Source of the DNA: a virus
IMG/VR virus record: IMGVR_UViG_3300042691_047309
Coordinates: 32,001 to 96,000 of that record
Length of the DNA: 64,000 nt
Reading direction: 5' to 3' (one strand)
Position numbers and translations under genes: made by a program. This document shows, piece by piece, positions 14,675 to 63,391 of the stretch (position 1 is its first letter; each line of letters starts with the position of its first letter). The notes under the pieces were generated by a model, which was not told the origin of the DNA, ran no database searches, and saw only the letters and a list, made by a program, of their open reading frames with translations.

Positions 14675-14854
14675 ATGAAAAAGGGTAAAATACACTTAGG
14701 AACTTTTACTAAATTAGACTCATTGAAAGCATCTAAGAAGGCTTCTCGTGAGATGGAATTACAAAATTCTACTGGATGGATTGCAAAACATAAAGTGCAT
14801 AAATCTGTTAAAGATTATACTCGAAAGTTAAAACACAAAAATGAAACTTTTTAA
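14675..14854 (+). CDS. Small basic protein (not in ORF track), possibly ArfA/BrfA-like
   Basis: MKKGKIHLGTFTKLDSLKASKKASREMELQNSTGWIAKHKVHKSVKDYTRKLKHKNETF, 59 aa, own promoter. Confidence 0.6.
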   Translation: MKKGKIHLGTFTKLDSLKASKKASREMELQNSTGWIAKHKVHKSVKDYTRKLKHKNETF

Positions 14855-15362
14855 AGAATTTATATCTTATTTTAATAATCCTTTTGTTAGGCCAAAAATA
14901 AAATTTTATATTGGTAAGGTTGCTGTTGGAACTCCTTATTTTTTTCCAAGAAAAACTATCAAAGATCCTGATAAACCAAAATATCTAAAATTTATTCCAA
15001 AAAAAATTGGATTTGACATTGTTTCTTTAGGTTGGAAAACAAAATGGTCTCAATTTAGATTTGAGTGGGCTCCTGTAGTTTCTTTTGTTTTCTTTAAATG
15101 GCAAATTGCTATAACCATTGTAGCTCCTGAACAAGACCATTACTGGGAAAGTTGGCTTTACTATCAGTATGAAACTGATAAAAAAAAGTCTAAATTAGAA
15201 AGAGCTATACAGTGTCAAAAAGAATATCCTCAAAATTGGAAATCAACAAGAAATGGTGTTGAAACAAAAATAAACTTCTATGACATTATTTTAAAAAAGA
15301 AATATCGTATAAAAAATATTGATGAAATAAGAGAAGATAAATTAAACTCTTTATTTAAATAA
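14841..15362 (+). CDS. Hypothetical protein with C-terminal tag
   Basis: Ends IREDKLNSLFK. Confidence 0.7.
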   Translation: MKLFKEFISYFNNPFVRPKIKFYIGKVAVGTPYFFPRKTIKDPDKPKYLKFIPKKIGFDIVSLGWKTKWSQFRFEWAPVVSFVFFKWQIAITIVAPEQDHYWESWLYYQYETDKKKSKLERAIQCQKEYPQNWKSTRNGVETKINFYDIILKKKYRIKNIDEIREDKLNSLFK

Positions 15363-15393
15363 AAAAACCTGTTCTTAATTGAACAGGTTTTTT
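15361..15393. terminator. Bidirectional intrinsic terminator
   Basis: A7-CCTGTTC-ttaatt-GAACAGG-T6. Confidence 0.75.
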
Positions 15394-15542
15394 ATCTTTA
15401 TCTTTCTTTTAAAATTCTTATGATATGATCCTGATAAGTATTCGGTATATGAAATATTTCTATCTATTTGTTCTGCTACATATTCACTATAAGCAATAGA
15501 TTCAAATAACTTCTCTTTAAGATACTCTTGATATTCTATCAT
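15375..15542 (-). CDS. Small C-tagged protein (not in ORF track)
   Basis: [55 protein letters not shown]; ATGA overlap with dnaJ stop. Confidence 0.6.
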
Positions 15543-16618
15543 ACTGTGAAATTATTTGAGTTTTTTAGTTTTTCTAAAACGAATTTCTCTTCAAGTGAAA
15601 TGTTTTTAGGAATTTTAATTTCAATTTTCACTAATAAATCACCAAGACCTAAATTTAGATCAGGAATTCCTTTACCAGATATTCTGATTATCTTACCCGG
15701 TTCTGTTCCTGGTTCAATAGTAAGTGGTAAATCACCGTGTGGTGTTTTTACTTTTAAGTGAGATCCAATAATTGCATCTAAAACAGAAATTTGTTTTTCA
15801 ACAATCAAGTTATTATTATCTCTTTTGAAATAAAACTCCACAATTTCATCAATAACAATCTGTAAGTCACCAGGAGTTCCATCTTTAACATGATTACCAT
15901 AACCGTTAAGAGTGAAAATCATATTTTTACTAACACCTGCTGGAATATCCACATCAACAACTTGTTCTTTAATTATTGTACCTTCTCCTTTGCAATCTTT
16001 ACAAAGGTTATTAATTACTTTACCACTACCTTGGCAATCTGGACAACCAGTCTCTTGTCTAATCTGACCAAATGGAGTATTTTGAACAACTGTTCTTCGA
16101 CCTGAACCATTACACGGTAGGCAATTTCTTGAATCAGATCCACCTTTACCGCTACAACTTTGACAAGTTTCCTGTCTTTTGTATTTTAATTTTTTAGAGC
16201 ATCCCTTTAAAACTTCTTCAATAGTCAAACTAACTTTCAGTCTTAAATCACCTCCCCTTCTTTTTTGGTTTCTCCAACGTCCTCCATTTTGATTTCCAAA
16301 GTTTCCAAAGATATCTCCAAATTGAGAAAAAATATCATCCATTGAAAAGCCATGACCAAATCCGCTATTTCCAAATGGATTTCCTCCACCAAATGGATTA
16401 GAATCAGATGTACCGAATCTATCATAATTATTTCTCTTTTGAGAATCACTCAGTACATCATAAGCTTCTGCTGCCTCTTTAAACTTTGACTCAGCTTCGG
16501 GATTATCAGGATTTTTGTCAGGATGATACTGCATGGCCATCTTACGGTAAGCTTTTTTAATCTCATCTTCCGATGATTCTTTATTAACTCCTAAAATGTT
16601 GTAATAATCTTTGCTCAT
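15539..16618 (-). CDS. dnaJ: Chaperone DnaJ
   Basis: J domain with HPD, G/F region, four CxxCxGxG repeats. Confidence 0.95.
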
Positions 16619-16935
16619 AATTTATTAAATATTTTTTCTAATTTAATATCTCTATATATCTGTTTAGTTGTATCTGTTAGCTTTATATCAACCCATCTGT
16701 TGTATTTAATTACAAACTCTTCTCCGTAAATATTTGCTCTCATTATTGGTAACTCTTCAATTATTTCTGAAAAAATAACCTCAATGTCTTCTAATTTATA
16801 ATCATTAATTTCTGATAATCTTTTGCAAAAATAATTCATACATGGTGATGCAGTTTTTATAACATTATTTAAATAATTATCTCCTTTAAAATTTTCCGGA
16901 GCTGCCTCGGATATTTCAACGTACCAATCAATCAT
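16615..16935 (-). CDS. Hypothetical C-tagged protein
   Basis: Ends [13 protein letters not shown]. Confidence 0.7.
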
Positions 16936-17480
16936 TTTACCAAATTTTTAATTTTTAAATCTCTAATATCTTCTTTTATATCATTAGACTCTAAAACTAA
17001 TTTAACAAGTTTTCCGATATAGTTATCAACAATTATTTCTAAAGTTGTAGATGTTTTATCAATGTATTGAAACTTTTCTAAACAATTCCTAGATGAAATA
17101 AGGTAATCAATTAGATATTCTATAAACTCATCAATATTATAGTGTAATTGAAAAAGTTCTAATCTACCATCCGGAACATATCCTTTAATTGCTTTTATTT
17201 CGGGTAACGTTTGAAATATTTTAGGTGGATCAATAAAAACTTTAGCAAAAACTCTTCTAACCGATGGTAGTATTAAGTCTAATATTTCATCTTCGCTTTC
17301 ATACATAGAACCCTCAAATTCTGGCGTATCAAATAAATGATATTTTTCTTCAATAATATAATTTAAAGTCATTTCATAATACTCTAAATATTCATCTGGT
17401 ATTCCTCCAGTTAGAGCATCAATGAGAGCATTTTTATAATTTTCATCTTTATGAATGGTAAAGAAGTTAGGTTTATCCAT
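16932..17480 (-). CDS. Hypothetical C-tagged protein with a capsid (Gol-region)-like segment
   Basis: LILPSVRRVFAKVF; ends [11 protein letters not shown]. Confidence 0.6.
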   Translation of the reverse strand: MDKPNFFTIHKDENYKNALIDALTGGIPDEYLEYYEMTLNYIIEEKYHLFDTPEFEGSMYESEDEILDLILPSVRRVFAKVFIDPPKIFQTLPEIKAIKGYVPDGRLELFQLHYNIDEFIEYLIDYLISSRNCLEKFQYIDKTSTTLEIIVDNYIGKLVKLVLESNDIKEDIRDLKIKNLVK

Positions 17481-17940
17481 TTTTACCTAAAATAATTTTT
17501 GGATATCTAAACGGTCTTCCATTTAAAGTATATCCTTTACTGACAACATCAACCACTTTTGTTTCATCCATTGGAATAACACTTATTACTTCATGTAGTT
17601 CATCATCGTAAGTTTCGGTTTGAATTGTTTCGATACCTTGTGACTTTAAAAAAGTATCAAGTTTAGAAAGAATTAAAGAGGTGCCTTCTGATACTTCACC
17701 AGATGATTTAATTGCAAAACTTAAATCATTGTCCATATCTAAAATAGATTGTAAAAGTTTTACCTTAGTATTAGTAAGTAGTTCTTCTTTATCTTTAATT
17801 ACTCTTTTTTTATAGTTTTCAAAGTCCGCATAAAGAAGAAGATACTTTTTTTCTGATTCTTCAAGTTGTTGTTTTAGTGAATCTTCTAAACTAATTTCAA
17901 CATTTTCTTGTTCTAATTGTTCATTTTTATTCTCTTCCAT
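17473..17940 (-). CDS. grpE: Nucleotide exchange factor GrpE
   Basis: ADFENYKKR, YDDELHEV, KGYTLNGRPFR. Confidence 0.9.
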   Translation of the reverse strand: MEENKNEQLEQENVEISLEDSLKQQLEESEKKYLLLYADFENYKKRVIKDKEELLTNTKVKLLQSILDMDNDLSFAIKSSGEVSEGTSLILSKLDTFLKSQGIETIQTETYDDELHEVISVIPMDETKVVDVVSKGYTLNGRPFRYPKIILGKNG

Positions 17941-17944
17941 ATTC

Positions 17945-18436
17945 TTAATAGTTAAATTTTAAAAGCTTCTTTATATTATTTGAGTTATAAAACTCATAAG
18001 TTACATTTTTATCAACGATTTTATGAATTTCTAATTTTTCCAATTCATCTTTCATTTCATTTATACAAACAACTAAATCTTTTAACGAGTTTGTCCAATT
18101 CACGGTTGGTTCCCAGTAATCAGGAAACTTATCTAAGAACTTATCAACTGCTGTATCAAAAGTTTTCTTTCTAATTAGAAGTCCATCTTTTTGAGGAGAA
18201 TGAATAGATTTATTTGTTAATATTTCAACTACATAAGTGTTGAATTTGTGAATTAGATTATCTGTCTCAATGACTTTCAAGAGACCTATGATAAGAGCAT
18301 CTCTTTCAGTCAATCTTATTGGACTATTCTCTTTTAGTATTTTCTCAGCTTCTTTTTCAGAACCTAATACATAATACACATAGTTGTCCCACACGCACAT
18401 TTTTATAACTTCTTCTGGGTAAATTTCAATTAGCAT
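17945..18436 (-). CDS. Hypothetical protein
   Basis: 163 aa ORF heading the grpE-dnaJ operon. Confidence 0.65.
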   Translation of the reverse strand: MLIEIYPEEVIKMCVWDNYVYYVLGSEKEAEKILKENSPIRLTERDALIIGLLKVIETDNLIHKFNTYVVEILTNKSIHSPQKDGLLIRKKTFDTAVDKFLDKFPDYWEPTVNWTNSLKDLVVCINEMKDELEKLEIHKIVDKNVTYEFYNSNNIKKLLKFNY

Positions 18437-18519
18437 AAATTAAATTATATTTTTGATTTATAGTCAGATTGTGACATAAAGTTTTTTATTTTAGATATTG
18501 ACAATTTTATAAATATAAT

Positions 18520-18527
18520 TATATTTG
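18520..18527 (+). promoter_or_regulatory. Bacteroidota -7 element TATATTTG
   Basis: Upstream of 18547 ORF, TTG at about -33. Confidence 0.6.
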
Positions 18528-18546
18528 TAAAAAATAATAACTGAAC

Positions 18547-19298: not shown

Positions 19299-19313
19299 AA
19301 TATAATTATTTTT

Positions 19314-19962: not shown

Positions 19963-20142
19963 ATGATGGATGAAGTAATGTCAGAAAGACCAAGCTACCG
20001 TTGGGATAACAAAGAGTATCTTGTAGAGGTTATGATGAAGCAATTAGGTATCACAGAAGAAGATTTAGAAAATGATCCTTCTTGGATGAAAGCTAAAGTT
20101 CGTGAAATGAATATCGAAAGAGTTTTAGAAAACGAAAATTAA
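19963..20142 (+). CDS. Small C-tagged protein (not in ORF track)
   Basis: MMDEVMSERPSYRW...AKVREMNIERVLENEN, 59 aa, followed by a terminator. Confidence 0.65.
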   Translation: MMDEVMSERPSYRWDNKEYLVEVMMKQLGITEEDLENDPSWMKAKVREMNIERVLENEN

Positions 20143-20172: not shown

Positions 20173-20184
20173 ATGCTTTTTCCT

Positions 20185-20192
20185 TATCTTTG
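20185..20192 (+). promoter_or_regulatory. Bacteroidota -7 element TATCTTTG
   Basis: 4 nt upstream of ATG 20197. Confidence 0.6.
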
Positions 20193-20196
20193 TATT

Positions 20197-20613
20197 ATGA
20201 TAACAAGAGAGAAAGTCCTACAGGTTCAAAATAAAATCAAAGAAGCAATTGCTCAAATTGAAAAAGATGAAAATGTTAAAATTGATTTTGGTTCATTAAG
20301 CTTTAATCCACAAAAGTATTCAACTTCTATGACGGTATCAACTTTAGAGAAATCTGAAAGAGTTGAGTCTGTTCTTGAAAGAACTTGTCGAGCAATTGGT
20401 TTTACTCAAAATGTTATTGGAATGACTTTTGATTTTCGTGGTGATAAATATGAAATCACTGATATCAAAACTAAAAACAGAAAGTATCCTGTTATTGCTA
20501 CTGAAATTAGAACTAAAAAAGGTTATAAATTTGCAGTAGAGACTATCAGAAAAGCATTGGGTGGTGATGCTCAAATTAATAGAAATAAGAATTTAGATAA
20601 ATTGGTTGATTAA
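20197..20613 (+). CDS. Hypothetical C-tagged phage protein
   Basis: Start reassigned to MITREK; ends NRNKNLDKLVD. Confidence 0.7.
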   Translation: MITREKVLQVQNKIKEAIAQIEKDENVKIDFGSLSFNPQKYSTSMTVSTLEKSERVESVLERTCRAIGFTQNVIGMTFDFRGDKYEITDIKTKNRKYPVIATEIRTKKGYKFAVETIRKALGGDAQINRNKNLDKLVD

Positions 20614-21038
20614 TGTATCTTTACATAGGTGATAAAAATTACTGGTTAGACTTTGGATGTTTTCCTGAGAAAATATCTCGCCTAAAAAAATTGAATCAAA
20701 TTAAATTTAAAATAAATTTATATGATTATGACAACGTGAAATCAACGTCTGCTGGATCTCAAATTGAATTTGCTAATAAATTTACTTTTTTAAAATCATT
20801 AAAAACACTTCCCCAAACAATTTATGCTTCAAAAAGCGACCACTACTGGTGGTCATTTGATGGATGTCAACTTTTAGATAAAAAGATATATCAAGATAAA
20901 GACTACTATGATTATGATGGTAGAGATATAAAAAAATGGAATATTGAATTAACAATATCTTATAAAGATGTGTATGGTTCTAATAAAAAACAAGTCTTAG
21001 AAAGAGATATAAAATTAAAGAAACTATTTAATGAGTAA
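20613..21038 (+). CDS. Hypothetical C-tagged protein, weak tail-tube-like pattern
   Basis: WWSFDGCQL...IELTISY; ends ERDIKLKKLFNE. Confidence 0.55.
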   Translation: MYLYIGDKNYWLDFGCFPEKISRLKKLNQIKFKINLYDYDNVKSTSAGSQIEFANKFTFLKSLKTLPQTIYASKSDHYWWSFDGCQLLDKKIYQDKDYYDYDGRDIKKWNIELTISYKDVYGSNKKQVLERDIKLKKLFNE

Positions 21039-31420: not shown

Positions 31421-33304
31421 ATGGCAAAAGATGTAATTATAGGAATTGACTTAGGCACAACTAACTCTTGTGTTGCTGTGGTAGAAGGTGGAGAACCAAT
31501 CGTTATCACAAACGCTGAGGGTAAAAGAACAACACCATCAGTGGTTGGTTTTACCGACAAAGACAGAAAGATTGGTGATCCTGCTAAAAGACAAGCAGTA
31601 ACTAATCCAAACAAAACCGTTTATTCTATCAAAAGATTTATCGGTAAAGATTTTTCAGTTTGTAAGGATGAGGTAACTCGTGTTCCTTATGAAGTTACTA
31701 ACACTGGAACTAATGTTCCTGGTGTGAAAATCGATGATAGAGTTTATACTCCACAAGAAATTTCAGCAATGATCCTTCAGAAGATGAAAAAAACTGCTGA
31801 AGACTATTTAGGTTATGAAGTAAAAAGAGCAGTTATCACTGTCCCGGCTTACTTTGGAGATGCTGAAAGAACCGCTACTATTGAAGCTGGTGAAATCGCT
31901 GGTCTAAAAGTAGAGAGAATTATCAACGAACCAACAGCTGCGGCACTGGCTTATGGTTTAGATAAGAAAAACACAGACTCTAAAATCTTAGTATTTGACT
32001 GTGGTGGTGGAACTCATGACGTATCTGTTCTTGAAATCGGTGATGGCGTATTTGAAGTAAAATCTACCGATGGTGATACTCACTTAGGTGGTGACGACTT
32101 TGATAACGCAATTATCGAGTGGATGGTTAATGAATTTAAATCAGATAATTCAATTGACCTATCTAAAGACCCTATGGCTCTCCAGAGATTGAAAGAAGCA
32201 GCTGAGAAAGCAAAGATTGAATTATCTTCTACTTCTCAGTCTGAAATCAATCTACCTTACATTACTGCAAGAGATAACATGCCACTTCACTTTGTTAAGT
32301 CTTTAACAAAATCTCAGTTTGACCAAATGACCGCATCTTTGGTTGATAGAGCTGTGAAGTGTGCAAAAAGTGCCCTTAAAAATGCTGGTCTTAAACCATC
32401 TGACATTGATGAAGTAATCTTAGTCGGTGGTTCAACAAGAATTCCAGCAGTTCAGGAGGCAGTAGAAAAGTTCATTGGTAAGAAACCAAACAAATCAGTT
32501 AATCCTGATGAAGTAGTTGCTTTAGGAGCCGCTATTCAAGGAGCTGTTTTAAGTGGTGGAATTACTGATGTTCTTCTTTTAGATGTAACTCCTCTTTCAC
32601 TTGGTATTGAAACAATGGGTTCAGTTATGACTAAGTTAATCGAAGCTAATACAACAATTCCGACCCGTAAGTCAGAAACGTTCTCAACAGCTTCTGATAA
32701 TCAACCGTCTGTTGAAATTCACGTTTTACAAGGTGAAAGACCGATGGCTCGTGATAACCGCTCACTTGGTCGTTTTCACTTAGATGGAATCATGCCAGCT
32801 CCGAGAGGTATCCCTCAAGTTGAAGTAACATTAGACATTGATGCCAACGGTATACTTTCAGTTTCAGCTAAAGATAAAGCTACTGGTAAAGAAAATCAGA
32901 TTCGTATTGAAGGTGGTTCTCAATTATCTAAAGAAGAAATTGAAAGAATGAAAGCAGAGGCTGAAGCAAATGCTGAGGCTGATGCTAAAGAAAGAGAAAT
33001 GGTTGATAAGCTAAATGCAGCAGACTCAATGATTTTCCAAACGGAAAAACAAATTAAAGAGTTTGATGAGAAATTATCAGCTGAAGATAAGACAACTTTA
33101 AATGAGAAGTTGGCTAACTTGAAATCAGCTCATTCTGAGAAGAACTTAGAAAAGATTGACGAATCTACAGCTAGTTTAAACGAAGCTTGGTCTCAAATTT
33201 CTACTAAGTTATATCAGCAGTCACAGGAAGCCCCAACCAATTCAGATAACAATTCTGATCCTAGCGATGAAGTTCAGGATGCGGATTTTGAAGAAGTTCC
33301 TTAA
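31421..33304 (+). CDS. dnaK: Chaperone DnaK (Hsp70)
   Basis: [46 protein letters not shown]. Confidence 0.98.
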
Positions 33305-38987: not shown

Positions 38988-40910
38988 ATGAGTCTATTAA
39001 ACACAATCAAAAAAGATTTCGTTCAAACTGAAAAAGATTTATCAATAAAGGATTATTTAGAACTTTGTAAAAATGATAAATCAATTTACACTTCACCTGC
39101 TGAAAGAATGCTTCAAGCAATTGGAGAGCCTGAAGTCATTGATACTAAATTCGACGAGAGATTAAGTCGTATTTATTCTAACCGAGTTATTAAAAGATAT
39201 CCAGCCTTTGCTGAGTTTTTTGGAATGGAAGATACAATCGAACAAATAGTATCTTTCTTCAAACACGCTGCACAGGGATTAGAAGAAAAGAAACAAATTA
39301 TTTATCTACTCGGTCCAGTTGGTGGTGGTAAATCATCTTTAGCAGAAAGGTTAAAACAATTAATGGAAAAAAGCTATATCTATGTTCTTATAGCTGACGG
39401 AGAGGTTTCTCCTGTTTGGGAAAATCCACTTGGACTTTTTTCAAATTATAGAACTGAACTAGAAGATGAATATGGTATTCATAGAAGATACGTTCCTTCT
39501 TGTCCTTCTCCTTGGGCTACAAAAAGATTAGCTGAATTTGAAGGTGACATTTCTAAGTTCAAAGTTCGTAGATTGAAATGTTCTATCTCATCACAAATAG
39601 GTATTTCTAAAGTAGAACCAGGAGATGAGAACAATCAGGATATCTCAGCGCTTGTTGGAAAAGTTGATATTAGAAAACTGGCTGAGTTTCCACAAAATGA
39701 CGCAGATGCTTACTCTTACTCAGGTTCTCTTTGTAAATCTAATCAAGGACTTATGGAATTTGTTGAGATGTTTAAAGCTCCGATTAAATTACTTCACCCA
39801 TTATTAACAGCTACTCAAGAAGGTAACTTTAATGGAACTGAAAACTTACCAGCTATTCCATTCCAGGGTATTCTTTTAGCTCACTCTAATGAGTCTGAGT
39901 GGGAAACCTTCTCTAATGATAAAAAGAATGAAGCTTTCTTAGACCGTGTTTATATTGTAAGAGTTCCTTACTGTTTGAGAATCGACGAAGAAGTAGAAAT
40001 TTATCAAAAACTTCTTAAAGGTTCTTCTCTTTCTCAAGCACCTTGCGCTCCTAAAACATTGGAAATGCTCGCTCAGTTTTGTGTAATGACAAGACTTAAA
40101 AGACCAGAAAATTCACTTATGTATTCTAAAATGAGAATTTATAATGGTGAGAACTTAAAAGAGTCTGATCCAAAGGCTAAATCATTACAGGAATATAAAG
40201 ACGATGCCGGAATTACTGAAGGAATGAACGGAATCTCTACCCGTTTTGCTTTTAAAGTTCTTTCTAAAGTATTCAACCATGATTCAGAAGAAGTTGCGGC
40301 AAATCCAGTTCATCTTTTCTATGTTTTAGAACAGGAAATCGTTAAAGCTCAAATGAATAAAGAAGTTGAAGAGTATTACTTAAATATTCTTAAATCAACA
40401 ATGACTAACAAATATGCTGAGTTCATCGGTGATGAAATTCAAAAAGCTTACGTTGATTCTTATCAAGAATATGGTCAAAACTTATTTGAGAGATATATTA
40501 CTTATGCTGATCATTGGTGTCAAGATAATGATTATAGAGATCCTGAAACTGGTCAGCAATTTGATAGAGGTGCTCTTAACGAAGAGTTAGAAAAAATTGA
40601 AAAGCCGGCTGGTATTGCAAATCCAAAAGATTTCAGAAATGATATAGTTCAATTTTATCTAAGACACAAAGCTAAGAATAGTAAATCTCCATCATGGGAT
40701 TCTTATGAGAAAATTAAGAATGTTATTGAAAAAAGAATATTCTCTAAAACTGAAGATCTTATACCAGTCATATCATTCACTGGTAAAACTTCTAAAGACG
40801 AAGAGAAGAAACATTCTGAATTTGTCAATAGAATGAAAGATAGAGGATATACTAATAAACAAATAAAACTTTTGACAGACTGGTACCTCAGAATTAGGAA
40901 ATCATCTTAA
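38988..40910 (+). CDS. yeaG: PrkA/YeaG AAA+ protein kinase
   Basis: Walker A LLGPVGGGKSS, EPGDENNQDIS, EFVEMFKAP, AHSNESEW. Confidence 0.93.
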   Translation: MSLLNTIKKDFVQTEKDLSIKDYLELCKNDKSIYTSPAERMLQAIGEPEVIDTKFDERLSRIYSNRVIKRYPAFAEFFGMEDTIEQIVSFFKHAAQGLEEKKQIIYLLGPVGGGKSSLAERLKQLMEKSYIYVLIADGEVSPVWENPLGLFSNYRTELEDEYGIHRRYVPSCPSPWATKRLAEFEGDISKFKVRRLKCSISSQIGISKVEPGDENNQDISALVGKVDIRKLAEFPQNDADAYSYSGSLCKSNQGLMEFVEMFKAPIKLLHPLLTATQEGNFNGTENLPAIPFQGILLAHSNESEWETFSNDKKNEAFLDRVYIVRVPYCLRIDEEVEIYQKLLKGSSLSQAPCAPKTLEMLAQFCVMTRLKRPENSLMYSKMRIYNGENLKESDPKAKSLQEYKDDAGITEGMNGISTRFAFKVLSKVFNHDSEEVAANPVHLFYVLEQEIVKAQMNKEVEEYYLNILKSTMTNKYAEFIGDEIQKAYVDSYQEYGQNLFERYITYADHWCQDNDYRDPETGQQFDRGALNEELEKIEKPAGIANPKDFRNDIVQFYLRHKAKNSKSPSWDSYEKIKNVIEKRIFSKTEDLIPVISFTGKTSKDEEKKHSEFVNRMKDRGYTNKQIKLLTDWYLRIRKSS

Positions 40911-41029
40911 TGAGACCTGTTAAAGACTTATTTACAAAAGAATACTATCGTATTAATCGTATTAAAAGGGTAGTTGTGCGCAAACTAAAAATAGAAAGAA
41001 TATTCAATGTCAATAAACATAGTAGATAG
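40910..41029 (+). CDS. 39-aa mini-ORF consisting mainly of the C-terminal tag (not in ORF track)
   Basis: MRPVKDLFTKEYYRINRIKRVVVRKLKIERIFNVNKHSR; TAATG overlap with yeaG stop. Confidence 0.5.
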   Translation: MRPVKDLFTKEYYRINRIKRVVVRKLKIERIFNVNKHSR

Positions 41030-42272: not shown

Positions 42273-42276
42273 AATA

Positions 42277-43767
42277 TTACTGTGTTGTAAATTGATAAAC
42301 CTTTCCCGAACTACCATAGTCAACTATCTTAGCAGCTACAAACTTTGCACCTTCTGCTGCATATTGTGACCAAGATTCATCAGAATATTTATTTGTATTT
42401 TGCTCAACAAACGTCAACGCATTATTAGCAATTTTTACAGCTTGACTAGAATACTCAGAAACACTTTTTCCGTCTCTTAGATTAATCAAATAAACCATTA
42501 CTTCAGAAGTTAATTTGGATTTTTCAAAATCCATTTCTTCTGCAGCACTATCCGAAATAGCTTCCATTACTCCTATTGCTTTATTTATAGTTTCTGGTGA
42601 TGGTTTTCCTCCACTAGCCGCGGCAGAAGTAAGTACAAAAAGTATAACAAGTAGGACTATAGTTATAATTATAGTTCTGTATAATACTGGATGTTTTTCT
42701 TTAAAATTTTTAATCTTATCCAAAATCCATTTTATAAATTTCTCAACAATTGATGCTGACTTTACACCTAATTCATACATCTTAAGACTTATACTTTCTA
42801 AATTTTCATTGAATTTTTTAAAGAAACTTTCAATAGTATCTAAACCTTTACCAATTGTTGCTAATAACTCATTAAAATTGGCTCCGGTGACACCAAATTT
42901 ACCCAAGTGGTCCCAGATTGATCTGTATTCTTTCTGATCTATATCACTCATTTCACTATTGATATAATCTTTAAGATTTGGCTTACCTTTAGAAATTAAT
43001 AAATTATTTATCTGTGCAATTTCATTCTTACTCTTTATTCTCTTAATTATTTTTAAAGCTGATTCTTCATCCGTACCGTCATAATCACCTTTAAATGATT
43101 TAATTAAATCATCTACTATAGATTTTACCGAATTATCAACTTTGTCATTTTTTTTACTTTCTATATTATTCCAATCTATGTCATTGAAAACACTATCATC
43201 TAATTTATGACCTATCATAGTATAAAGACCTATTTCTTTTAATGCATCCGGATTTGTCTTTATTATTTTTTCTAATTGACGAACTTTACCATCAACTATT
43301 TTGATACCGAATTTTTTATCAGAATTATTTGTTAAATCTTCTAATCTTTTATTTAGTTCGATTTTATTTATTTTCTTTGATTTGTATGATGATATTAGTT
43401 CATACATTTTATCAAGTGGTAATCTCATTTGTACACTAAATTCATGTCCTGAGAATGGTACAATTTCATTTTTTGAGGATTTTAAAAACCATTTGGCTAG
43501 TGGTGTGTTTGTCACAACAATGTCATATCTTAAATACCAAACATTTTGTTTCTTACCTATAGAAATGTATGGATCATCTTCGACTTCGACTTCATCTTTG
43601 ATTTTTTCTGTTTGATAGTTCAATACAAAATCTAAAACTGGACTATCATCTTTATTTGGATCTGCAAAATAGTCAGAAAGATTTCCTTTTTCATATTCGT
43701 CTTTGTTCCAAAACCATTCCTCATTAATTGCACATCTAAAAGATTCGTATGTTTTGATATACTTCAT
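42277..43767 (-). CDS. Multi-module N-tagged protein with annexin-like repeat and TM helix
   Basis: MKYIKTYESF; GTDEESALKII..LKDYINSEMS; internal FKKFNEN; TM IIITIVLLVILFVL. Confidence 0.6.
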   Translation of the reverse strand: MKYIKTYESFRCAINEEWFWNKDEYEKGNLSDYFADPNKDDSPVLDFVLNYQTEKIKDEVEVEDDPYISIGKKQNVWYLRYDIVVTNTPLAKWFLKSSKNEIVPFSGHEFSVQMRLPLDKMYELISSYKSKKINKIELNKRLEDLTNNSDKKFGIKIVDGKVRQLEKIIKTNPDALKEIGLYTMIGHKLDDSVFNDIDWNNIESKKNDKVDNSVKSIVDDLIKSFKGDYDGTDEESALKIIKRIKSKNEIAQINNLLISKGKPNLKDYINSEMSDIDQKEYRSIWDHLGKFGVTGANFNELLATIGKGLDTIESFFKKFNENLESISLKMYELGVKSASIVEKFIKWILDKIKNFKEKHPVLYRTIIITIVLLVILFVLTSAAASGGKPSPETINKAIGVMEAISDSAAEEMDFEKSKLTSEVMVYLINLRDGKSVSEYSSQAVKIANNALTFVEQNTNKYSDESWSQYAAEGAKFVAAKIVDYGSSGKVYQFTTQ

Positions 43768-43846
43768 GTTGAAAATAACTTTCTATTATATATAAATTAT
43801 TATAAACAATAAACTAAAAATAGACTAAAAATAAAAACAAAATTAT

Positions 43847-45343
43847 ATGAAGAAAAAAGATATCAAAAACTTATTCTCAAAATCAGATTGGAATGAAGAA
43901 ACTATTCAAGTTTTTTCTGAAATAATTGATAAAATGTCTATAGACTTACTTGGACTTGATGTTTATGTAAATCAATTTGAAATTGTATCTTCTGAACAAT
44001 TACTAGATGCTTACGCACTTATAGGACTTCCACTTTCATATAACCATTGGAAATTTGGAAAAGATTATGTAGTAAATACAAATAATTATAAAAAAGGAAG
44101 AATGGGTCTAAGCTACGAAATGGTAATTAACAGCTCGCCCTGCATCTCTTACAACTTAGAGGACAATGATACTTGTCTTATGTTATTAGTTTATGCACAT
44201 GTTCAGGGCCATAATCACTTCTTTAAGAACAATTATCTTTTTAAACAATGGACTCAAGCTGATTCCATTATCGATTATATGTTATTTGCTAAAAACTTTA
44301 TTGCCAAATGTGAAGAGAAGTATGGATATGAAGAAGTTGAAATGGTTTTAGATGCTTGTCACGCACTTATGAACTATGGTGTTGATAAATATAAAAAACC
44401 GGCTAAATTATCACCTAAAGAAGAGCATGACAGATTAAAAAAGAAGATTGAAGACGATAGAATTTTACTTGATGACATCTGGAGAACCCTTCCTAAGGAT
44501 GATCAGAAAAGAAAAAGAAAAGAAAGATTTCCGGCTCAACCTGAAGAAAATATTCTTTACTTTATCGAAAAAAATTCACCAAAACTAAAAGCTTGGCAAA
44601 GAGAAATTGTTAGAATTGTTAGAAAGGTATCTCAATACTTTTACCCACAGGGTCAAACTAAAGTTATCAATGAGGGATGTGCGACTTTTACACACTATGA
44701 GATAGTAAATAAAATGTTTGAAGAAGGATATTTAGATGATGGATTTATGTTAGAATTTATGCACCATCATTCTAATGTTATTTTTCAACCGGGATTTGAT
44801 TCTAAATTCTATTCAGGTTTGAATCCATATACTTTAGGCTTTAATATCTTTTCTGATTTAAAAAGAATGTCATTAGATCCAACTCCAGAGGATTTACAAT
44901 GGTTTCCTGAAATTGCTGGAAAAGGAGATTGGAAAGAACAATTTTTATATATTGTTGAAAATTTCAAAGATGAAACATTTGTTCTTCAATATCTTTCTCC
45001 AAAAGTTATGCGTGATATGAGATTATTTGAGATATCAGATGAATCAACTTCTAACTTTTATAAAGTTAGTTCAATTCATAATGAAAAGGGATATAAAAAA
45101 GTTAGACAATCACTTTCTGAATTTTATAACAGAAGTAGATATGTTCCAGATATTCAAGTTTATAATGTTGATGTTTATGGAAATAGAAGTCTTACTTTAG
45201 AATACACTCCTTTAGATGGTAGAGATTTAGATTCAAATGAAGTTGATAAGGTTCTTCCACATGTTAAATACTTATGGGGATTTCCAGTTAAGATGGTTCA
45301 AAGAGGTCAAGAAAAATTGACAGTTATTTCTTCTTTGGAATAA
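43847..45343 (+). CDS. ycgB: SpoVR/YcgB family protein
   Basis: YNHWKFGK, YEMVINS, HVQGHNHFFKNN, TKVINEGCATF, NPYTLG. Confidence 0.92.
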   Translation: MKKKDIKNLFSKSDWNEETIQVFSEIIDKMSIDLLGLDVYVNQFEIVSSEQLLDAYALIGLPLSYNHWKFGKDYVVNTNNYKKGRMGLSYEMVINSSPCISYNLEDNDTCLMLLVYAHVQGHNHFFKNNYLFKQWTQADSIIDYMLFAKNFIAKCEEKYGYEEVEMVLDACHALMNYGVDKYKKPAKLSPKEEHDRLKKKIEDDRILLDDIWRTLPKDDQKRKRKERFPAQPEENILYFIEKNSPKLKAWQREIVRIVRKVSQYFYPQGQTKVINEGCATFTHYEIVNKMFEEGYLDDGFMLEFMHHHSNVIFQPGFDSKFYSGLNPYTLGFNIFSDLKRMSLDPTPEDLQWFPEIAGKGDWKEQFLYIVENFKDETFVLQYLSPKVMRDMRLFEISDESTSNFYKVSSIHNEKGYKKVRQSLSEFYNRSRYVPDIQVYNVDVYGNRSLTLEYTPLDGRDLDSNEVDKVLPHVKYLWGFPVKMVQRGQEKLTVISSLE

Positions 45344-47917: not shown

Positions 47918-48548
47918 ATTTCACTATTTCAATTCCAGTAGTTTCTAAAAAATTAATACCCGACCCATCTCTATATTCATCTACATAGACCAATCTTTTT
48001 ATTCCTGATTGTAGAATCAGTTTTGAACAATCTTTACATGGTGAGTGAGTTAAATAAAGAGTAGCTCCATCGCAAGATTGACCTCTACGGGCACATTTAA
48101 GTATAGCGTTTGCTTCACCATGAATTACATACCAATGTGTGGTATCAGGATCCAATTCACATTGATTATCAAATCCAGTTGGTGTTCCGTTATATCCATC
48201 TGATATAATCATATCATCTTTTACAATTAAGGCCCCAACTTTCATTCTTGAGCAATGAGAAAGATTAGACCACTCTTTAGCCATATTTAAATATGTTTTA
48301 TCATATTTTTGTTGCTTGTATCTGGATTTAATCTCATCGATAAAATTTGTGATTTTATCAGGACCATCTATATTCTTTTCTTTACCGGACTTATCTTTGA
48401 TTATCATTCTTATCGCATTTTTATCTGATTTATCAAACACTTCCATTTTAATAACCATAGGACTCATATCATCATAAATATAATCCTGTGATTCAATCAT
48501 TTCTTTTGTAATTCCTTTTAAATATACAGTATCAAAATCACTCTTCAT
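47910..48548 (-). CDS. dCMP deaminase with N-terminal extension
   Basis: KVGA, GYNGTP, HGEANAI, SPCKDC. Confidence 0.9.
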   Translation of the reverse strand: MKSDFDTVYLKGITKEMIESQDYIYDDMSPMVIKMEVFDKSDKNAIRMIIKDKSGKEKNIDGPDKITNFIDEIKSRYKQQKYDKTYLNMAKEWSNLSHCSRMKVGALIVKDDMIISDGYNGTPTGFDNQCELDPDTTHWYVIHGEANAILKCARRGQSCDGATLYLTHSPCKDCSKLILQSGIKRLVYVDEYRDGSGINFLETTGIEIVKYG

Positions 48549-48693
48549 CCCTAAATAACTTATTTATTTTGGATTTTCTATATTCTGATTTCGTATCAAA
48601 TCCTAAAATATTTTTTAATGCCCAATTTACATCTAAATGACCTGTGATCATTAACTCTTTTAAAAGTTCATATTTTTTGTTTTTATCAGACAT
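48538..48693 (-). CDS. Small C-tagged protein (not in ORF track), portal-like segment
   Basis: MSDKNKKYELLKELMITGHLDVNWALKNILGFDTKSEYRKSKINKLFRDEE. Confidence 0.55.
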   Translation of the reverse strand: MSDKNKKYELLKELMITGHLDVNWALKNILGFDTKSEYRKSKINKLFRDEE

Positions 48694-48862
48694 TAAATAA
48701 TCTTTTGATTTTTTTCTTTCTAATCTTTGGTCTATCTATTTTATAGATAATGTCAGTAATAGTTGAATTGACTGTTATATAATTACCAGAACCTCTGGTT
48801 GATTTATTATTTATCAACGCAGAGGCTTGTAGTAATTTATCAACTAAACTTTTATTAGTCAT
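48686..48862 (-). CDS. Small C-tagged protein containing a major-capsid-like fragment
   Basis: MTNKSLVDKLLQASALINNKSTRGSGNYITVNSTITDII...IRKKKIKRLFNV; start reassigned. Confidence 0.6.
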   Translation of the reverse strand: MTNKSLVDKLLQASALINNKSTRGSGNYITVNSTITDIIYKIDRPKIRKKKIKRLFNV

Positions 48863-49409
48863 TGTGTTTTTCAATCTGAAGAGCACTTAACTCAACAAGA
48901 TTTTTTCTACCAAAAATCATAACTTCAACCTTGACTTTTTGGTCTTTAATACTTTCTACTGTTCCTGTAAATCCTGTAAAAGGACCATCAAGAACTTTAA
49001 CAGATTCACCGGAAATGAAGTGGTCAAATTGTTCGGCTACTACTTCTTTTTCTTTTTGAATACCAAGCATTCTATCAACTTCTCCTTGTGTTAGAGACTG
49101 AATAGTTTTATCTCGTGATGTAAGAAATCCTGTAGCACCATTTACACCTTTTAAATAATATTTCAATTCACCAACAGCATTTGTTTCAACAAAAATATAT
49201 CCTGGATACATTACTTTTTCACGTTGAACTTTTTTACCATTCTTTAAATGAAAAGATTTTTCAGTTGGAACAATTACTCTACCTATTTTACCCATTAAGT
49301 CACCAGTTTCACCATCTTTGACAATTCTTTCCGAAACAGATCTTTCTCTGTTTGATTGCGCTCTAACGATATACCATTTCATTGTTTTAACATTTTCTAA
49401 AGTTTCCAT
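48855..49409 (-). CDS. nusG: Transcription termination/antitermination factor NusG
   Basis: KWYIVRAQS, MYPGYIFVE, KOW GESVKVLDGPFTGF, VMIFGR. Confidence 0.92.
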   Translation of the reverse strand: METLENVKTMKWYIVRAQSNRERSVSERIVKDGETGDLMGKIGRVIVPTEKSFHLKNGKKVQREKVMYPGYIFVETNAVGELKYYLKGVNGATGFLTSRDKTIQSLTQGEVDRMLGIQKEKEVVAEQFDHFISGESVKVLDGPFTGFTGTVESIKDQKVKVEVMIFGRKNLVELSALQIEKHND

Positions 49410-50828: not shown

Positions 50829-51197
50829 TTAGTTTATAATATCATCTATCTTTTTGTCCCTTTCTAACCACTTAAACTTTTTCTCTAAATAGTCTTCAAT
50901 TTCAGATGGAAAGAAAGTATTATTTTTATGTAATTCATCTAAAAAAGGTTTTCCTAAAACATTAAGTATAGCAATATTAGTTATTAAATTCGAATCTCTA
51001 TAGTGACCGTTATTTGACACTTCAACATCTTCACCTAAAATATGATAAGTTATTTTTGAAGCTCCTATTGTAAATGATGAACCATTATAAACCAAACTTG
51101 TCCCAGAAACCGTAGTCGATGTATTTGAGGATGAGCCAGTAATTGCAAAGATACCGGGAGGTATTTGTAGATTGGTTTGTTTTTTAGCCATATCCAT
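50829..51197 (-). CDS. Hypothetical C-tagged protein
   Basis: Ser/Thr-rich N-terminus; ends ERDKKIDDIIN. Confidence 0.65.
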   Translation of the reverse strand: MDMAKKQTNLQIPPGIFAITGSSSNTSTTVSGTSLVYNGSSFTIGASKITYHILGEDVEVSNNGHYRDSNLITNIAILNVLGKPFLDELHKNNTFFPSEIEDYLEKKFKWLERDKKIDDIIN

Positions 51198-52848: not shown

Positions 52849-53370
52849 TTACAAAATCTTATTTATTTGGATTTCTCTCCAAAGAGTTCTAAATTCTTCT
52901 CTTATTTCAAAATCATAATCGTAGCAATCCTTTTGTTGATAATAATCGTAATAGCTTTTCTGAATTTTCTTATTTATCTCTTCGTACTTTGGTTTTACAA
53001 GATACCAAGCATCATTTTTCTCTGACCAATCTATTAGATTTTTAATTAAGTCAAAGTTTATTTTTTTAAATCCATTAAGGAATTTAGGATTAGCCCACGA
53101 ATAAAAGTAACTTCTTATTATCTCATTCTTGAAATCAAAAAATCCAGATGGATTGGTAGATAGTGGTGTAGTGAAGTAAAACTCTTCACAACTCCTCATA
53201 AGTATTTTAGTTAATTCTATTACTTTTTTAGGTAATTTATTTTCTAAAATAATATGAGGCACATCATCTATTAAAATACAAATTGGAATCTTTTGAATTT
53301 TTTTGAAATATATTATTCCTTTTGAAAAGGACCAATCTTCATTACTCGGTAGTATTTTATTTAAGTCCAT
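52849..53370 (-). CDS. Hypothetical C-tagged protein
   Basis: Ends WREIQINKIL. Confidence 0.65.
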   Translation of the reverse strand: MDLNKILPSNEDWSFSKGIIYFKKIQKIPICILIDDVPHIILENKLPKKVIELTKILMRSCEEFYFTTPLSTNPSGFFDFKNEIIRSYFYSWANPKFLNGFKKINFDLIKNLIDWSEKNDAWYLVKPKYEEINKKIQKSYYDYYQQKDCYDYDFEIREEFRTLWREIQINKIL

Positions 53371-53700: not shown

Positions 53701-53973
53701 TTATTTTAGAATTTCAGAAATCTTCTCATCTCTATCTATTGAATAAGTATCTATAATGAAAATTGGACTACCATCTATTCTTGACCTACTTATAAACTTA
53801 GCCCAGTATTTCTGACCAAAGTATTTTTTATCAATAAGGTTTTTTCTTACCGTTTCATCTTCAGAACTCCAATCGTATCGATGATTTAAGTCATCAATAA
53901 TTTCAAAAGATTTGTCGAAACAAATAAGTTGGTCTTTGGATTCTAAACCAATTTTTTTTATTAGAATTGTCAT
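53701..53973 (-). CDS. Hypothetical C-tagged protein
   Basis: Start reassigned to MTILIKK (ATGA overlap with topoisomerase stop); ends DRDEKISEILK. Confidence 0.6.
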   Translation of the reverse strand: MTILIKKIGLESKDQLICFDKSFEIIDDLNHRYDWSSEDETVRKNLIDKKYFGQKYWAKFISRSRIDGSPIFIIDTYSIDRDEKISEILK

Positions 53974-59544: not shown

Positions 59545-59580
59545 ATAAAAACAAAAATAAGTTTTTACTATATACGAGTT

Positions 59581-60924: not shown

Positions 60925-60938
60925 TCAGATTTTATTAT

Positions 60939-60946
60939 TATATTTG
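60939..60946 (+). promoter_or_regulatory. Bacteroidota -7 element TATATTTG
   Basis: Upstream of 60963. Confidence 0.55.
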
Positions 60947-60962
60947 TCTAAAATATATTTTA

Positions 60963-61340
60963 ATGGTTACAAAAGAAATTAAACAATTTGTTATTACTCA
61001 GATGAAAGAGGCTGATTGGGAGGTTGAGAAATTCGATGGCTTAAATGAATACAAATCTAAACATATCAACATACAACAAGACACTACTATTAGTCAAAAG
61101 GTTACTTTTCTAATAAAGATACCCAATGGTCATGGTAGCTATCAAAATCTTAAATTAAACCGTAAGGAGTTAGGAATAAATTATCTACGATACAGATTTT
61201 TATTAAAAGGTGTAAAGAGGTCTTGTAAATTAGTTGATAATCGTAGAAGAGAAGCTGAGATTTCTCGCAATTGGAAAAAATTCTTAGAAAAAAATAAAGA
61301 TCTTAATAGGGATAATAAAATAAACCAAATTATAGATTAA
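60963..61340 (+). CDS. Hypothetical C-tagged protein
   Basis: Ends NRDNKINQIID. Confidence 0.65.
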   Translation: MVTKEIKQFVITQMKEADWEVEKFDGLNEYKSKHINIQQDTTISQKVTFLIKIPNGHGSYQNLKLNRKELGINYLRYRFLLKGVKRSCKLVDNRRREAEISRNWKKFLEKNKDLNRDNKINQIID

Positions 61341-62458
61341 TGAAACAGGAATTATTTAATCTTATTGAACAAAAATCACCAGGTGCTAAACCGCTATATC
61401 TTGTTGTTCGTGGTTCTCATGCTTATGGAACTAACATTGAAACTTCAGATACTGATTACGCTGGAGTTTTTATTCAGTCTCAAAATGATATTTTAGGAAA
61501 TACTTACAAAGAACAAATAAATGATGATAATAATGATATTGTTATTTATGAAATTCGTAGATTTTTAGAACTTTTAGGATCAAACAATCCAACTGTTTTA
61601 GAACTTCTTAATACACCAGAAGATTGTGTGGTTTATAAAGACCCTATCTTTGATATGGTTTTAGAAAACCGTGATAATTTCATCACTAAGATTTGTGCTA
61701 AGTCTTTTGGTGGTTATGCAAAACAACAGATAAGTAAGGCACGAGGTCAAGATAAAAAACAAAACTGGGAGAAAGATAAAGTTACTCGCAAAACTCCTTT
61801 AGATTTCTGCTATATTCACCGTGGTGAAAAATCAATTCCACTTGTGAGCTTTATGGAAGAAAAAGGCATGGATCAGAGATTTTGTGGTTTATCTAATGTT
61901 CCACATAGTAGAGATACTTATGCTCTTTTCTATGACTTTAAAGAAGAAGAAACTGATGGTGAAATTAAAAATTTAGGATTTAAAGGTATCGCATTTGAAG
62001 ATTCTAATCAAGTTAGATTATCATCCATTCCTATAGATACTCCTAAAAACTATTTTATCGGACACGTTTCTTATAACAAAGATGGATATTCACAACATTG
62101 TAAAGATTATAAATCTTATCAAGAATGGTTAGAAAATCGTAACTTATCACGTTGGGTAGATGTTCAATCTCATGGTCAAAAAATTGACGGTAAGAATATG
62201 ATGCACTGTAAACGTCTAATGGAAATGGCAAAAGAGATTGGACAAGGAAAAGGTATTATTGTAAGACGACCAAATGCACAAGAACTCATTGCAATTCGAA
62301 AAGGTGATGTTGATCTACAAACTTTAATTGATTCTGTTGAAGACGAAATAAAAGAAGTTGATAAAATTTTTGAAGACTCAAATCTTCCTGATAAAATTGA
62401 TGAAAATTTTATAAATAATCTGATTATTAAAATAAGAAAACAAATATATAAGATATGA
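61340..62458 (+). CDS. Pol-beta superfamily nucleotidyltransferase (YcgL/RlaP-like)
   Basis: RGSHAYGTNIETSDTD, NNPTVLELL, KNMMHCKRL. Confidence 0.8.
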   Translation: MKQELFNLIEQKSPGAKPLYLVVRGSHAYGTNIETSDTDYAGVFIQSQNDILGNTYKEQINDDNNDIVIYEIRRFLELLGSNNPTVLELLNTPEDCVVYKDPIFDMVLENRDNFITKICAKSFGGYAKQQISKARGQDKKQNWEKDKVTRKTPLDFCYIHRGEKSIPLVSFMEEKGMDQRFCGLSNVPHSRDTYALFYDFKEEETDGEIKNLGFKGIAFEDSNQVRLSSIPIDTPKNYFIGHVSYNKDGYSQHCKDYKSYQEWLENRNLSRWVDVQSHGQKIDGKNMMHCKRLMEMAKEIGQGKGIIVRRPNAQELIAIRKGDVDLQTLIDSVEDEIKEVDKIFEDSNLPDKIDENFINNLIIKIRKQIYKI

Positions 62459-63078
62459 TATTATACTTAATTTTAGTATTTTTAATTGGTGTGTCTGTTG
62501 GTGGATATTTATCAAAAAAACTAGCTATTAAAGCACTTAAGTTAGAAAATGAACGACACAACTTAGAGAAAAAAAATCAATTTTTAGAAGTTCTGTCTAA
62601 AATTAAAACTGGAAAATCTAAATTCAAAACTAGAGTTAATGATACAGTTTATATCGAAGTTGAATTAGAAAATTTAGGACAAATTGATGTAATTTATCTT
62701 ATGGATAAAAATGATATTGCTCTTTTTAAAGAAGCTAAGTGTTTAAATACGTCTGATAGCATTCAATCGGAAATTATTACAGAAATAATCGCAAATATTT
62801 ACAGAATTTATAATCAAAAAATTAATGACATTGTTGAAATACTTGGTTTTACTTTTTACAGAGAAGAGTTTGAAAGAACTTTTAGAGTGAAAGCTGATGA
62901 TCTAAAAAAAGTATTCGATCCAGTTATTGAATCCGAAGTTGATCAAATAAATATCGAAAACCAAAAGAAATTTGACATAGATGATATCTTAGATAAAATA
63001 TCAGCAACTGGAATTGCATCACTTACAATAGAAGAAAGAATTTTTCTAGATAATTACTCAAATGAAAAGAGAAATTAA
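62455..63078 (+). CDS. Membrane-anchored hypothetical protein
   Basis: N-terminal TM; C-terminal IDDILDKISATGIASLTIEERIFL (DUF6576-like). Confidence 0.6.
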   Translation: MILYLILVFLIGVSVGGYLSKKLAIKALKLENERHNLEKKNQFLEVLSKIKTGKSKFKTRVNDTVYIEVELENLGQIDVIYLMDKNDIALFKEAKCLNTSDSIQSEIITEIIANIYRIYNQKINDIVEILGFTFYREEFERTFRVKADDLKKVFDPVIESEVDQINIENQKKFDIDDILDKISATGIASLTIEERIFLDNYSNEKRN

Positions 63079-63391
63079 CGTTAGTCCCTGGAAACACATA
63101 ACCACTACTCATAAAATTGAACATCACACACTTGATGAAATATTCACCATTCTAATTGAAAAGGATGGTGAATATTCTTTTATTGTTGAGGAATGTCAAA
63201 AGGTGTTTGATGTTTCACAAATGCCAATTTATATTAAAGAAGATTGGATAAAATATAATAAAAAATCCGTATCTTTGTCATTACTTAATGAACAGATTAA
63301 AAAATTGACAAATGATTTTGATCAATTTGAAGAAGAGTTGAATTTGTTAAAATCGTTAAGAAGAGATTTAATAATTAAAGGAATAATATGA
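63062..63391 (+). CDS. Hypothetical C-tagged protein
   Basis: Ends LRRDLIIKGII. Confidence 0.6.
   Translation: MKREINVSPWKHITTTHKIEHHTLDEIFTILIEKDGEYSFIVEECQKVFDVSQMPIYIKEDWIKYNKKSVSLSLLNEQIKKLTNDFDQFEEELNLLKSLRRDLIIKGII

Follow-up and report, generated by a model that had tools for sequence, protein, structure and literature searches.

A carboxy-terminal peptide on unrelated small proteins of Mahaphage-type phages looks like an undescribed address or disposal label

Why should small phage proteins that have nothing else in common end in the same few residues? The question is raised by a 64,000-nucleotide stretch of DNA, called here the window, which covers bases 32001-96000 of the 175,894-bp IMG/VR virus record IMGVR_UViG_3300042691_047309 (the whole contig is G000). 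A sequence-only reading had listed 15 open reading frames (ORFs) in the window with the tail R[DEKN]x[KNQ][IL]xx[IL][FLIV], and had taken this tail for a module that docks variable bodies onto one hub. Translations of all 15 ORFs were checked, and each ends as had been written; the tail pattern held in 13, and the other two, 19963..20142 and 63062..63391, are weak look-alikes. Relatives of 281 kb (G001) and 342 kb (G003) served for comparison, and among named relatives LR756502 (642 kb) and LR745206 (634 kb) are closest, at a gp32 identity of 83%.

A tail under selection on unrelated proteins

We assembled a set of 258 greedy, non-overlapping ORFs from the entire contig and located every match to the tail pattern. 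Enrichment at carboxy termini over shuffled controls had been set as a test beforehand, and 24 of the 25 matches were found to sit 0-7 residues before the C-terminus, compared to 0.03 expected when whole proteins were shuffled and 0.12 when only the last 25 residues were shuffled. The 732 discarded ORFs contained one C-terminal match. Genes outside the window, which form an independent set, gave 12 C-terminal matches and one internal match. Scoring with a position matrix identified 30 strong tags on the contig, followed by a clear gap in score and then by about seven weaker ones. The ORFs of the window are as follows (window coordinates; lengths in amino acids, aa; scores from the matrix).

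14841..15362, + strand: 173 aa, tail REDKLNSLFK, tag at nucleotides 15330-15359; score 26.0; G001 orthologue tagged
15375..15542, - strand: 55-aa tagged ORF that closes the grpE-dnaJ operon; score 19.2; tag codons overlap a bidirectional terminator hairpin
16615..16935, - strand: 106-aa tagged ORF between grpE and dnaJ; score 25.7; G001 orthologue with tail RESKLNKILA
16932..17480, - strand: 182-aa tagged ORF between grpE and dnaJ; score 20.9; G001 orthologue with tail RDKKITKIVK
19963..20142, + strand: 59 aa, REMNIERVLENEN; weak tag (REMNIERVL) that fails the strict pattern, with V at position 8; score 10.6; LR756502 homologue tagged
20173..20613, + strand: 146 aa, tail RNKNLDKLVD; score 17.5; G001 and LR756502 orthologues tagged
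20613..21038, + strand: 141 aa, tail RDIKLKKLFNE; score 24.3
40910..41029, + strand: 39-aa tagged mini-ORF, RKLKIERIFNVNKHSR, between prkA and yeaH and overlapping the yeaH start; score 20.9; the least certain gene
48538..48693, - strand: 51-aa tagged ORF, RKSKINKLFRDEE; score 28.2
48686..48886, - strand: 58-66 aa, tail RKKKIKRLFNV; score 23.2; a start at 48886 is possible instead of 48862
50829..51197, - strand: 122 aa, tail RDKKIDDIIN; score 20.7; orthologues in locus L008, G001 and LR756502 tagged
52849..53370, - strand: 173 aa, tail REIQINKIL; 53 metagenomic homologues; AlphaFold2 model with a predicted local distance difference test (pLDDT) score of 88, in which the tag ends helix 154-172
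53701..53973, - strand: 90 aa, tail RDEKISEILK, which satisfies the pattern
60963..61340, + strand: 125 aa, tail RDNKINQIID; score 25.2
63062..63391, + strand: 109 aa, tail RDLIIKGII; a doubtful member that fails the pattern, with I at position 4; score 5.1

For the ORF ending at 20613 we prefer the start at 20173 over that at 20197, which had been given earlier and yields 138 aa. The ORF at 53701..53973 was left out of the gene set solely because it overlaps a topoisomerase gene. Tagged small ORFs within 10 kb of prkA, such as the one at 40910..41029, were also seen at related loci.

Is the repeat a property of the DNA or of the protein? Synonymous codons vary at the motif positions (five Leu, three Ile and both Phe codons are used), and the DNA on either side of the tag codons is unrelated among carriers, indicating that the repeat belongs to the protein. 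Tags are also present on both genes of a convergent pair. A DNA repeat, a promoter or terminator, and the A-rich regions of translation initiation were each considered as the cause and excluded by the codon variation and by the tags at convergent ends. A tail without function, a side effect of AT-rich composition or of DNA signals where genes end, would be helped by the 28% G+C content of the genome, in which codons for K, N, I and L and the AGA codon for Arg are common. However, shuffling the last 25 residues yields 0.12 matches against the 24 observed, equally AT-rich relatives are tagless (loci L024, L025 and L028, with 28-29% G+C, and LR756501, with 32%), and neither the synonymous codon variation nor the tags at convergent gene ends would be expected. 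This reading is refuted by the shuffle, relative and codon controls.

The convergent genes at 14841..15362 (+) and 15375..15542 (-) flank a single G+C-rich hairpin (window 15330-15410). It is bordered by A/T runs and resembles a bidirectional terminator, and its stem includes the last tag codons of the 55-aa ORF.

About 10% of the proteins carry the tag, and the carriers are small, otherwise unrelated and fast-evolving. When the tags were removed from the 37 carriers of the contig, BLAST detected no similarity among the bodies, and the 107 carriers of LR756502 fell into 102 BLAST groups; paralogy of the carriers was ruled out in both genomes by these comparisons. Searches of the 37 carriers against Pfam and PHROGs gave no shared family and single matches only, one carrier being a DUF2158 domain followed by the tag. 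The analogy with viral F-box adaptors that had been drawn from sequence therefore did not survive as a relationship: Pfam found no common family, and conservation is limited to about 14 residues.

Orthologues in G001 were found for 20 of the 37 contig carriers, and all 20 retain a conforming tag, with the bodies being on average about 42% identical. Exchanges within the tag between these orthologues are I/L, L/F and D/E/N; one G001 tail, RDYNLSLLI, fits the pattern but was misplaced in the global alignment. LR756502 homologues of carriers that score below threshold mostly have degenerate tags that are still visible. In the 53-member family of 52849..53370, where identity falls to 36%, the tail ...EIREEFRTLWREIQINKIL is nearly invariant and is the most conserved segment. 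These comparisons show that the tag is under selection at the protein level. The docking proposal thus stood in so far as it described a constant, selected C-terminal module on unrelated bodies; its further elements, a single hub and carriers that act as adaptors rather than as substrates, did not gain the same footing.

Form of the tag and its likeness to known peptides

The protein-level consensus is Φ-R-[DEN]-x-K-[IL]-[ND]-x-[IL]-[LFG]-x-COOH. Conservation extends over about 14 residues, [KI]-x-[ELI]-Φ-R-[DEN]-x-K-[IL]-[ND]-[KQE]-[IL]-[LFG]-x, and nothing is conserved upstream of this stretch. Zero to two residues follow position 9, which completes the hydrophobic pair, in 73% of 171 tags, and 3-11 residues follow it in 27%. 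In a Gly variant the protein terminates in [IL]-G-[IVL]-COOH. The tag is a gene-encoded short linear motif of about 14 residues that probably forms an amphipathic helix, with the invariant Arg, the Lys and three or four hydrophobic residues on one face. On a helical wheel drawn from the sequence, Arg, Lys and the hydrophobic residues would share a face, and the conserved Asp/Asn of positions 2 and 6 would lie opposite. The AlphaFold2 model of the 173-aa family, the only one with a deep alignment, places the tag at the end of a long C-terminal helix. A Foldseek search of this model against the PDB returned no match at E <= 0.001, and when the ESM Atlas was queried with the tail of the 73-aa DUF2158 protein, nothing usable came up.

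A basic, amphipathic helix at the C-terminus could also be a membrane-targeting element like those of MinD and FtsA, holding the small proteins at the inner membrane, and we take tails such as RKKKIKRLFNV to resemble that of MinD, as a lead only. With just three to four hydrophobic residues, frequent acidic residues within and ahead of the motif, and an invariant Arg and Lys and conserved Asn/Asp that exceed what lipid binding needs, we regard this as quite unlikely.

We compared the tag with described address peptides. The defining features of ssrA-type degrons, the PCNA-interacting peptide (PIP) box, the T4 capsid targeting sequence (CTS), encapsulin cargo peptides, PRANC/F-box proteins, the MinD tail and the HbYX motif are in no case present in full; in its mode of action the tag would come closest to a C-terminal degron or to the tethering peptide of an adaptor. 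Like the ssrA-type degrons read by ClpX, ClpA or ClpC, it is short, lies near a free C-terminus, has terminal hydrophobic residues and is portable between unrelated proteins, and the phages studied here also encode a Clp unfoldase and ClpP. Unlike ssrA, which is added by transfer-messenger RNA, the tag is gene-encoded and probably helical and has a different consensus with an invariant Arg and Lys. Adaptors offer a second parallel. The XB peptide of SspB tethers it to ClpX, and in both the SspB XB tail and the poxvirus PRANC/F-box adaptors a variable body is likewise joined to a constant C-terminal docking element, with many carriers per genome. However, PRANC/F-box is a domain of 40-50 residues on paralogous ankyrin proteins, whereas the phage tag has 10-14 residues and its bodies are not paralogous; adaptors use the N-domain of the unfoldase, which the phage ClpC does not have.

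The T4 CTS is also a phage-encoded address peptide on unrelated proteins, and the same genomes carry a CTS-like N-terminal leader on a different set of proteins. The CTS itself sits at the N-terminus of late proteins and is removed by cleavage after Glu, whereas the tag is C-terminal and lies outside the phage-promoter class. Identity with the CTS was ruled out by the C-terminal position, by the avoidance of the structural promoter class among carriers and by the single overlap with the N-leader set. PIP-box and T4 gp45-binding tails are likewise C-terminal, with h-x-x-h-h spacing and flanking basic residues, but the PIP box has a Gln and an aromatic pair, both of which are lacking in the tag, and the tag is found on orphan proteins. 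Both the PIP box, Q-x-x-[ILM]-x-x-[FY]-[FY], and the beta-clamp motif, QL[SD]LF, were rejected: position 2 is D/E/N/K, and L/I/F/G make up the last pair, where 14 of 171 tags have Phe. An encapsulin cargo-loading peptide was rejected since the logo has no G-S-L-[KR]-type core and the expression class differs, and an HbYX docking motif since there is no Tyr at the required position; exactly one residue follows the hydrophobic pair in 46% of tags. The sequence-only reading had known of no such system in phage, and none came to light in full-text literature searches and in term look-ups within huge-phage papers. The tag looks like an undescribed address or disposal label.

Distribution among phages and expression class

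The contig (CheckV completeness estimate, 73%) belongs with the Mahaphage-type huge phages of Bacteroidota. PMC7162821 lists genomes of 634 and 642 kb among its complete Mahaphage genomes and predicts replication in Bacteroidetes for them. The contig encodes a T4-type gp32, subunits of topoisomerase II, a protein resembling the baseplate wedge and an RNA ligase, and has a proteostasis set consisting of DnaK, DnaJ, GrpE, a ClpC-like unfoldase and PrkA/YeaH/SpoVR. We examined 80 PrkA-anchored IMG/VR loci and found tags only in a close clade in which PrkA is at least 71% identical; 65 more distant loci, three of them equally AT-rich, had none. Whole genomes gave the following counts.

G001, 281 kb: 35 C-terminal tags, 424 genes
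LR756502, 642 kb: 107 C-terminal tags, 1007 genes, plus 18 internal matches
LR756504, 636 kb: 39 tags of the variant R-K-x-K-I-x-x-L-L-COOH, usually stopping exactly at position 9
LR756501, 735 kb: no tags
G003, 342 kb: no tags

The count for LR756502 is conservative (at least 107), because the gene caller missed further short tagged ORFs. Tags in this circular genome are concentrated in one region that spans the origin of the record, where long co-directional arrays consist almost purely of tagged genes of 60-200 aa. The tag is clade-specific and its consensus shifts between subclades, as would be expected if it co-evolves with a reader.

Host-envelope proteins of viral origin were also noted: a TonB-dependent receptor and proteins with C-terminal sorting domains of type IX secretion are encoded by the phage (L005:16220-19006 (-), L006:3006-4565 (-) and L003:6087-8243 (+)).

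The most enriched word upstream of genes is the intergenic ATTTAATATATA. Behind it lie the baseplate-like and head-tail-adaptor-like genes, those for gp32, topoisomerase and ClpC, and a second set of tagged genes, whose products begin with a T4 CTS-like leader, M-K-[YH]-[IL]-K-[KR]-[FY]-N-E... (window 68-31009 and elsewhere). This N-leader was found on 17 proteins of the contig, 32 of G001 and 67 of LR756502, many of them enzymes, nearly always behind ATTTAATATATA, and was absent from the tag-less G003. In LR756502, 12% of C-tagged genes lie behind ATTTAATATATA, compared to 40% of untagged genes (P = 2e-9) and 81% of N-tagged genes (P = 6e-20), and a similar trend was seen in G001 and the contig. 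C-tagged genes are mostly found behind TAnnTTTG-type sequences, which are the housekeeping promoter form of Bacteroidota, or deep within long operons. An earlier assignment of the tagged genes to units with host-type or AAAC-class promoters is borne out in outline for the host-type class: they lie mostly in host-type TAnnTTTG units or long operons, away from the phage promoter. Recognisable enzymes and the N-tagged set had been said to be free of the tag, and this held as well: the two sets are mutually exclusive, with one overlap between 171 C-tagged and 116 N-tagged proteins in three genomes (P = 4e-5).

Could the tag be a virion-packaging signal, by which a C-terminal helix docks cargo inside the capsid or scaffold? 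C-terminal helices are known to dock on HK97-fold shells, and the Gly variant ...DLGI faintly resembles an encapsulin cargo peptide. The avoidance of ATTTAATATATA and the exclusivity of the C- and N-tags argue against packaging and for an early or host-takeover class of genes; it is the N-tagged proteins, 81% of them behind the structural-gene promoter against 12% of the C-tagged, that are the candidate cargo. We consider packaging of the C-tagged proteins very improbable.

One leader-bearing protein, encoded at window 1638-3344 (-), is a 568-aa fusion of a 2H phosphoesterase, with a weak match resembling Acb1, which acts against the cyclic oligonucleotide-based antiphage signalling system (CBASS), to an RNase T/DnaQ-type exonuclease. 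Two chaperone units, dnaK (upstream of window 31421) and the grpE-dnaJ operon (upstream of 18436), lack the two main promoter motifs and instead have repeated TGTCA/TGACA words; they may form a separate regulatory class.

Candidate readers of the tag

The interpretation of the tail as a shared recognition tag is well supported. We infer three further points, namely a single reader, ClpC with ClpP as that reader, and degradation as the outcome. So many and such varied carriers are easier to reconcile with a reader that binds transiently (a protease, chaperone or transporter, for example) than with a scaffold of fixed stoichiometry. Tentatively, the tag may be a degron or hand-over label for phage proteostasis, with either the N-domain-less ClpC and ClpP, or DnaK/DnaJ/GrpE and an extra J-protein, as the machinery. 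The Mahaphage-type clade would append a helix to the C-terminus of about 10% of its proteins, and one receptor, most likely the N-domain-less ClpC-type unfoldase with ClpP, would recognise it as their shared label. Acting as a degron or hand-over signal that each protein brings with it, the tag could limit the lifetime of early accessory proteins, and this limit would set in once the genes with phage promoters, clpC among them, are switched on. Stated more broadly, the clade may possess a private protein-addressing code, a serious possibility if still short of probable, in which a clade-specific helix on about 10% of genes is read by a phage-encoded machine (remodelled ClpC/ClpP, or a J-protein with Hsp70), early effectors are timed, routed or destroyed, and tag and reader co-evolve. 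The candidate genes are listed below (window coordinates unless a locus or the contig is named).

dnaJ, 15539..16618, - strand: DnaJ, DnaJ_CXXCXGXG and DnaJ_C domains; candidate reader system
grpE, 17473..17940, - strand: candidate reader system; found by BLAST in tag-bearing genomes only
dnaK, 31421..33304, + strand: candidate reader system; the tag-less LR756501 has one too
clpC-like, L001:7502-9616 and contig (G000) 7502-9619, + strand: unfoldase without a Clp_N domain
J-domain protein of 221 aa, L007:15670-16332 and contig (G000) 171670-172335, + strand: HPD signature ..YREIVKxTHPDK.. and a conserved C-terminal ESTYTWKW stretch

The phage ClpC has at its N-terminus a short acidic extension that is conserved (..DDEDDD..GF), carries a UVR motif in its M-domain and offers a VGF loop for ClpP docking; metagenomes contain more than 120 near-identical clusters (at least 78% identity). 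Tagged genes flank clpC, and one of the three ClpP homologues of LR756502 directly adjoins a tagged gene. The N-domain-less form with an M-domain is present in all five tag-bearing genomes, and in G003 and LR756501, which are tag-less, the form is ClpA-like, with an N-domain and no M-domain. The terminal position of most tags is as in C-terminal degrons that are read at the AAA+ pore.

Several observations weigh against degradation by ClpC as the fate of the carriers. The correlation with the form of ClpC is confounded by phylogeny and perhaps reflects one evolutionary event. About 10-15% of matches are internal and a minority of tags have 3-11 trailing residues, which is awkward for a strictly carboxy-terminal degron. 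The pattern of conservation, with Asn/Asp at positions 2 and 6 and an invariant Arg, suggests from sequence that a specific helix-binding groove would be favoured over pore engagement. Three tagged genes lie inside the grpE-dnaJ operon, and the 221-aa J-domain protein was found by BLAST to be specific to tag-bearing genomes (four), both of which point to the Hsp70 system. A host protein could equally be the reader.

The two Hsp70 observations could mean that the tag hands small proteins to the phage DnaK/DnaJ/GrpE, perhaps via the 221-aa J-protein, to be folded, held or relocated. The arrangement of the three tagged genes in the operon is kept in G001, and both GrpE and the HPD J-protein are present in all four tag-bearing genomes searched and absent from G003 and LR756501 by BLAST. 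We nevertheless think this unlikely: DnaK occurs in the tag-less LR756501 too, as does a DnaJ homologue, the later phage promoter drives the gene for the extra J-protein, and the motif contains acidic and Asn residues, which are atypical of DnaK-binding cores. Phylogenetic profiling for proteins present in LR756502 and LR756504 and absent from LR756501 and G003 gave 39 proteins; those that also occur in the contig or G001 include GrpE, the 221-aa J-protein and a PD-(D/E)XK nuclease. So broad a set does not single out a reader. The occurrence of DnaK and of PrkA does not follow that of the tag, and the distribution of PrkA/YeaH/SpoVR is uninformative, because these genes are present in the tag-less G003 and absent from the tag-less LR756501. 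An ABC exporter, as for export resembling type I secretion, had no convincing match in the contig or G001 and weak ones in LR756502.

Alternatively, the carriers could be adaptors, each with a variable body that captures its own target in the host and a constant tail by which the adaptor is held at an unfoldase or protease, so that host proteins are destroyed. The architecture of variable body and constant C-terminal peptide, a gene class and location typical of host-takeover genes, and the phage's own Clp machinery are consistent with this. Many carriers have just 39-80 aa, however, leaving scant room for a target-binding domain, and the phage ClpC is without the N-domain that known adaptors use as a dock; a role as adaptor tether is improbable.

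The reader could instead be an abundant hub of the Bacteroidota host, such as a protease, RNA polymerase, the ribosome or the sliding clamp. Host-type promoters transcribe the tagged genes, at a time when phage proteins would be few, and the h-x-x-h-h spacing, as read from the sequence, fits PIP-box-like peptides. Against this, the consensus differs between subclades, and we do not think a host hub likely. The clamp is further weakened because replication proteins are untagged: the split family-B polymerase of LR756502 and the replication genes beside it have no tag, and one neighbour ends in a T4-like ...IDFL. A clamp motif on replication and repair enzymes was rejected in the same way, as the split polymerase B, FEN-like exonuclease, gp32 and topoisomerase are untagged. 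Pfam models of gp45 and polymerase B found no clamp, and detected a split polymerase in LR756502 only. This family-B polymerase (LR756502, 253853-257968) is apparently divided into ORFs of 512 and 555 aa, with two small genes of the reverse strand lying between them. A tag-like match occurs inside the second ORF, and the C-termini of the two halves have no tag.

Huge phages carry hundreds of small orphan genes that resist annotation, and the tag sorts a tenth of the proteome into a functional class. It predicts a single reader that would be retrievable with one peptide. Should the phage Clp or Hsp70 machinery prove to be the reader, the tag would become the first example in bacteria of a degron or sorting code that is encoded by a virus and spans its proteome, and would explain the remodelled chaperones and proteases of these phages; as an addressing code it would give the virus a degron or sorting system of its own, with a reach like that of signal peptides in cells. 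The tag could also be transferred to other proteins in Bacteroidota, as a tool to time their degradation or direct their localisation.

The prkA, yeaH (DUF444) and spoVR genes (window 38988-45343), the first two of which border the 39-aa tagged ORF, form a highly conserved trio, PrkA being 90% identical to that of G001. The trio was found in 127 IMG/VR contigs, many of which are unrelated, G+C-richer viruses or misbinned bacteria.

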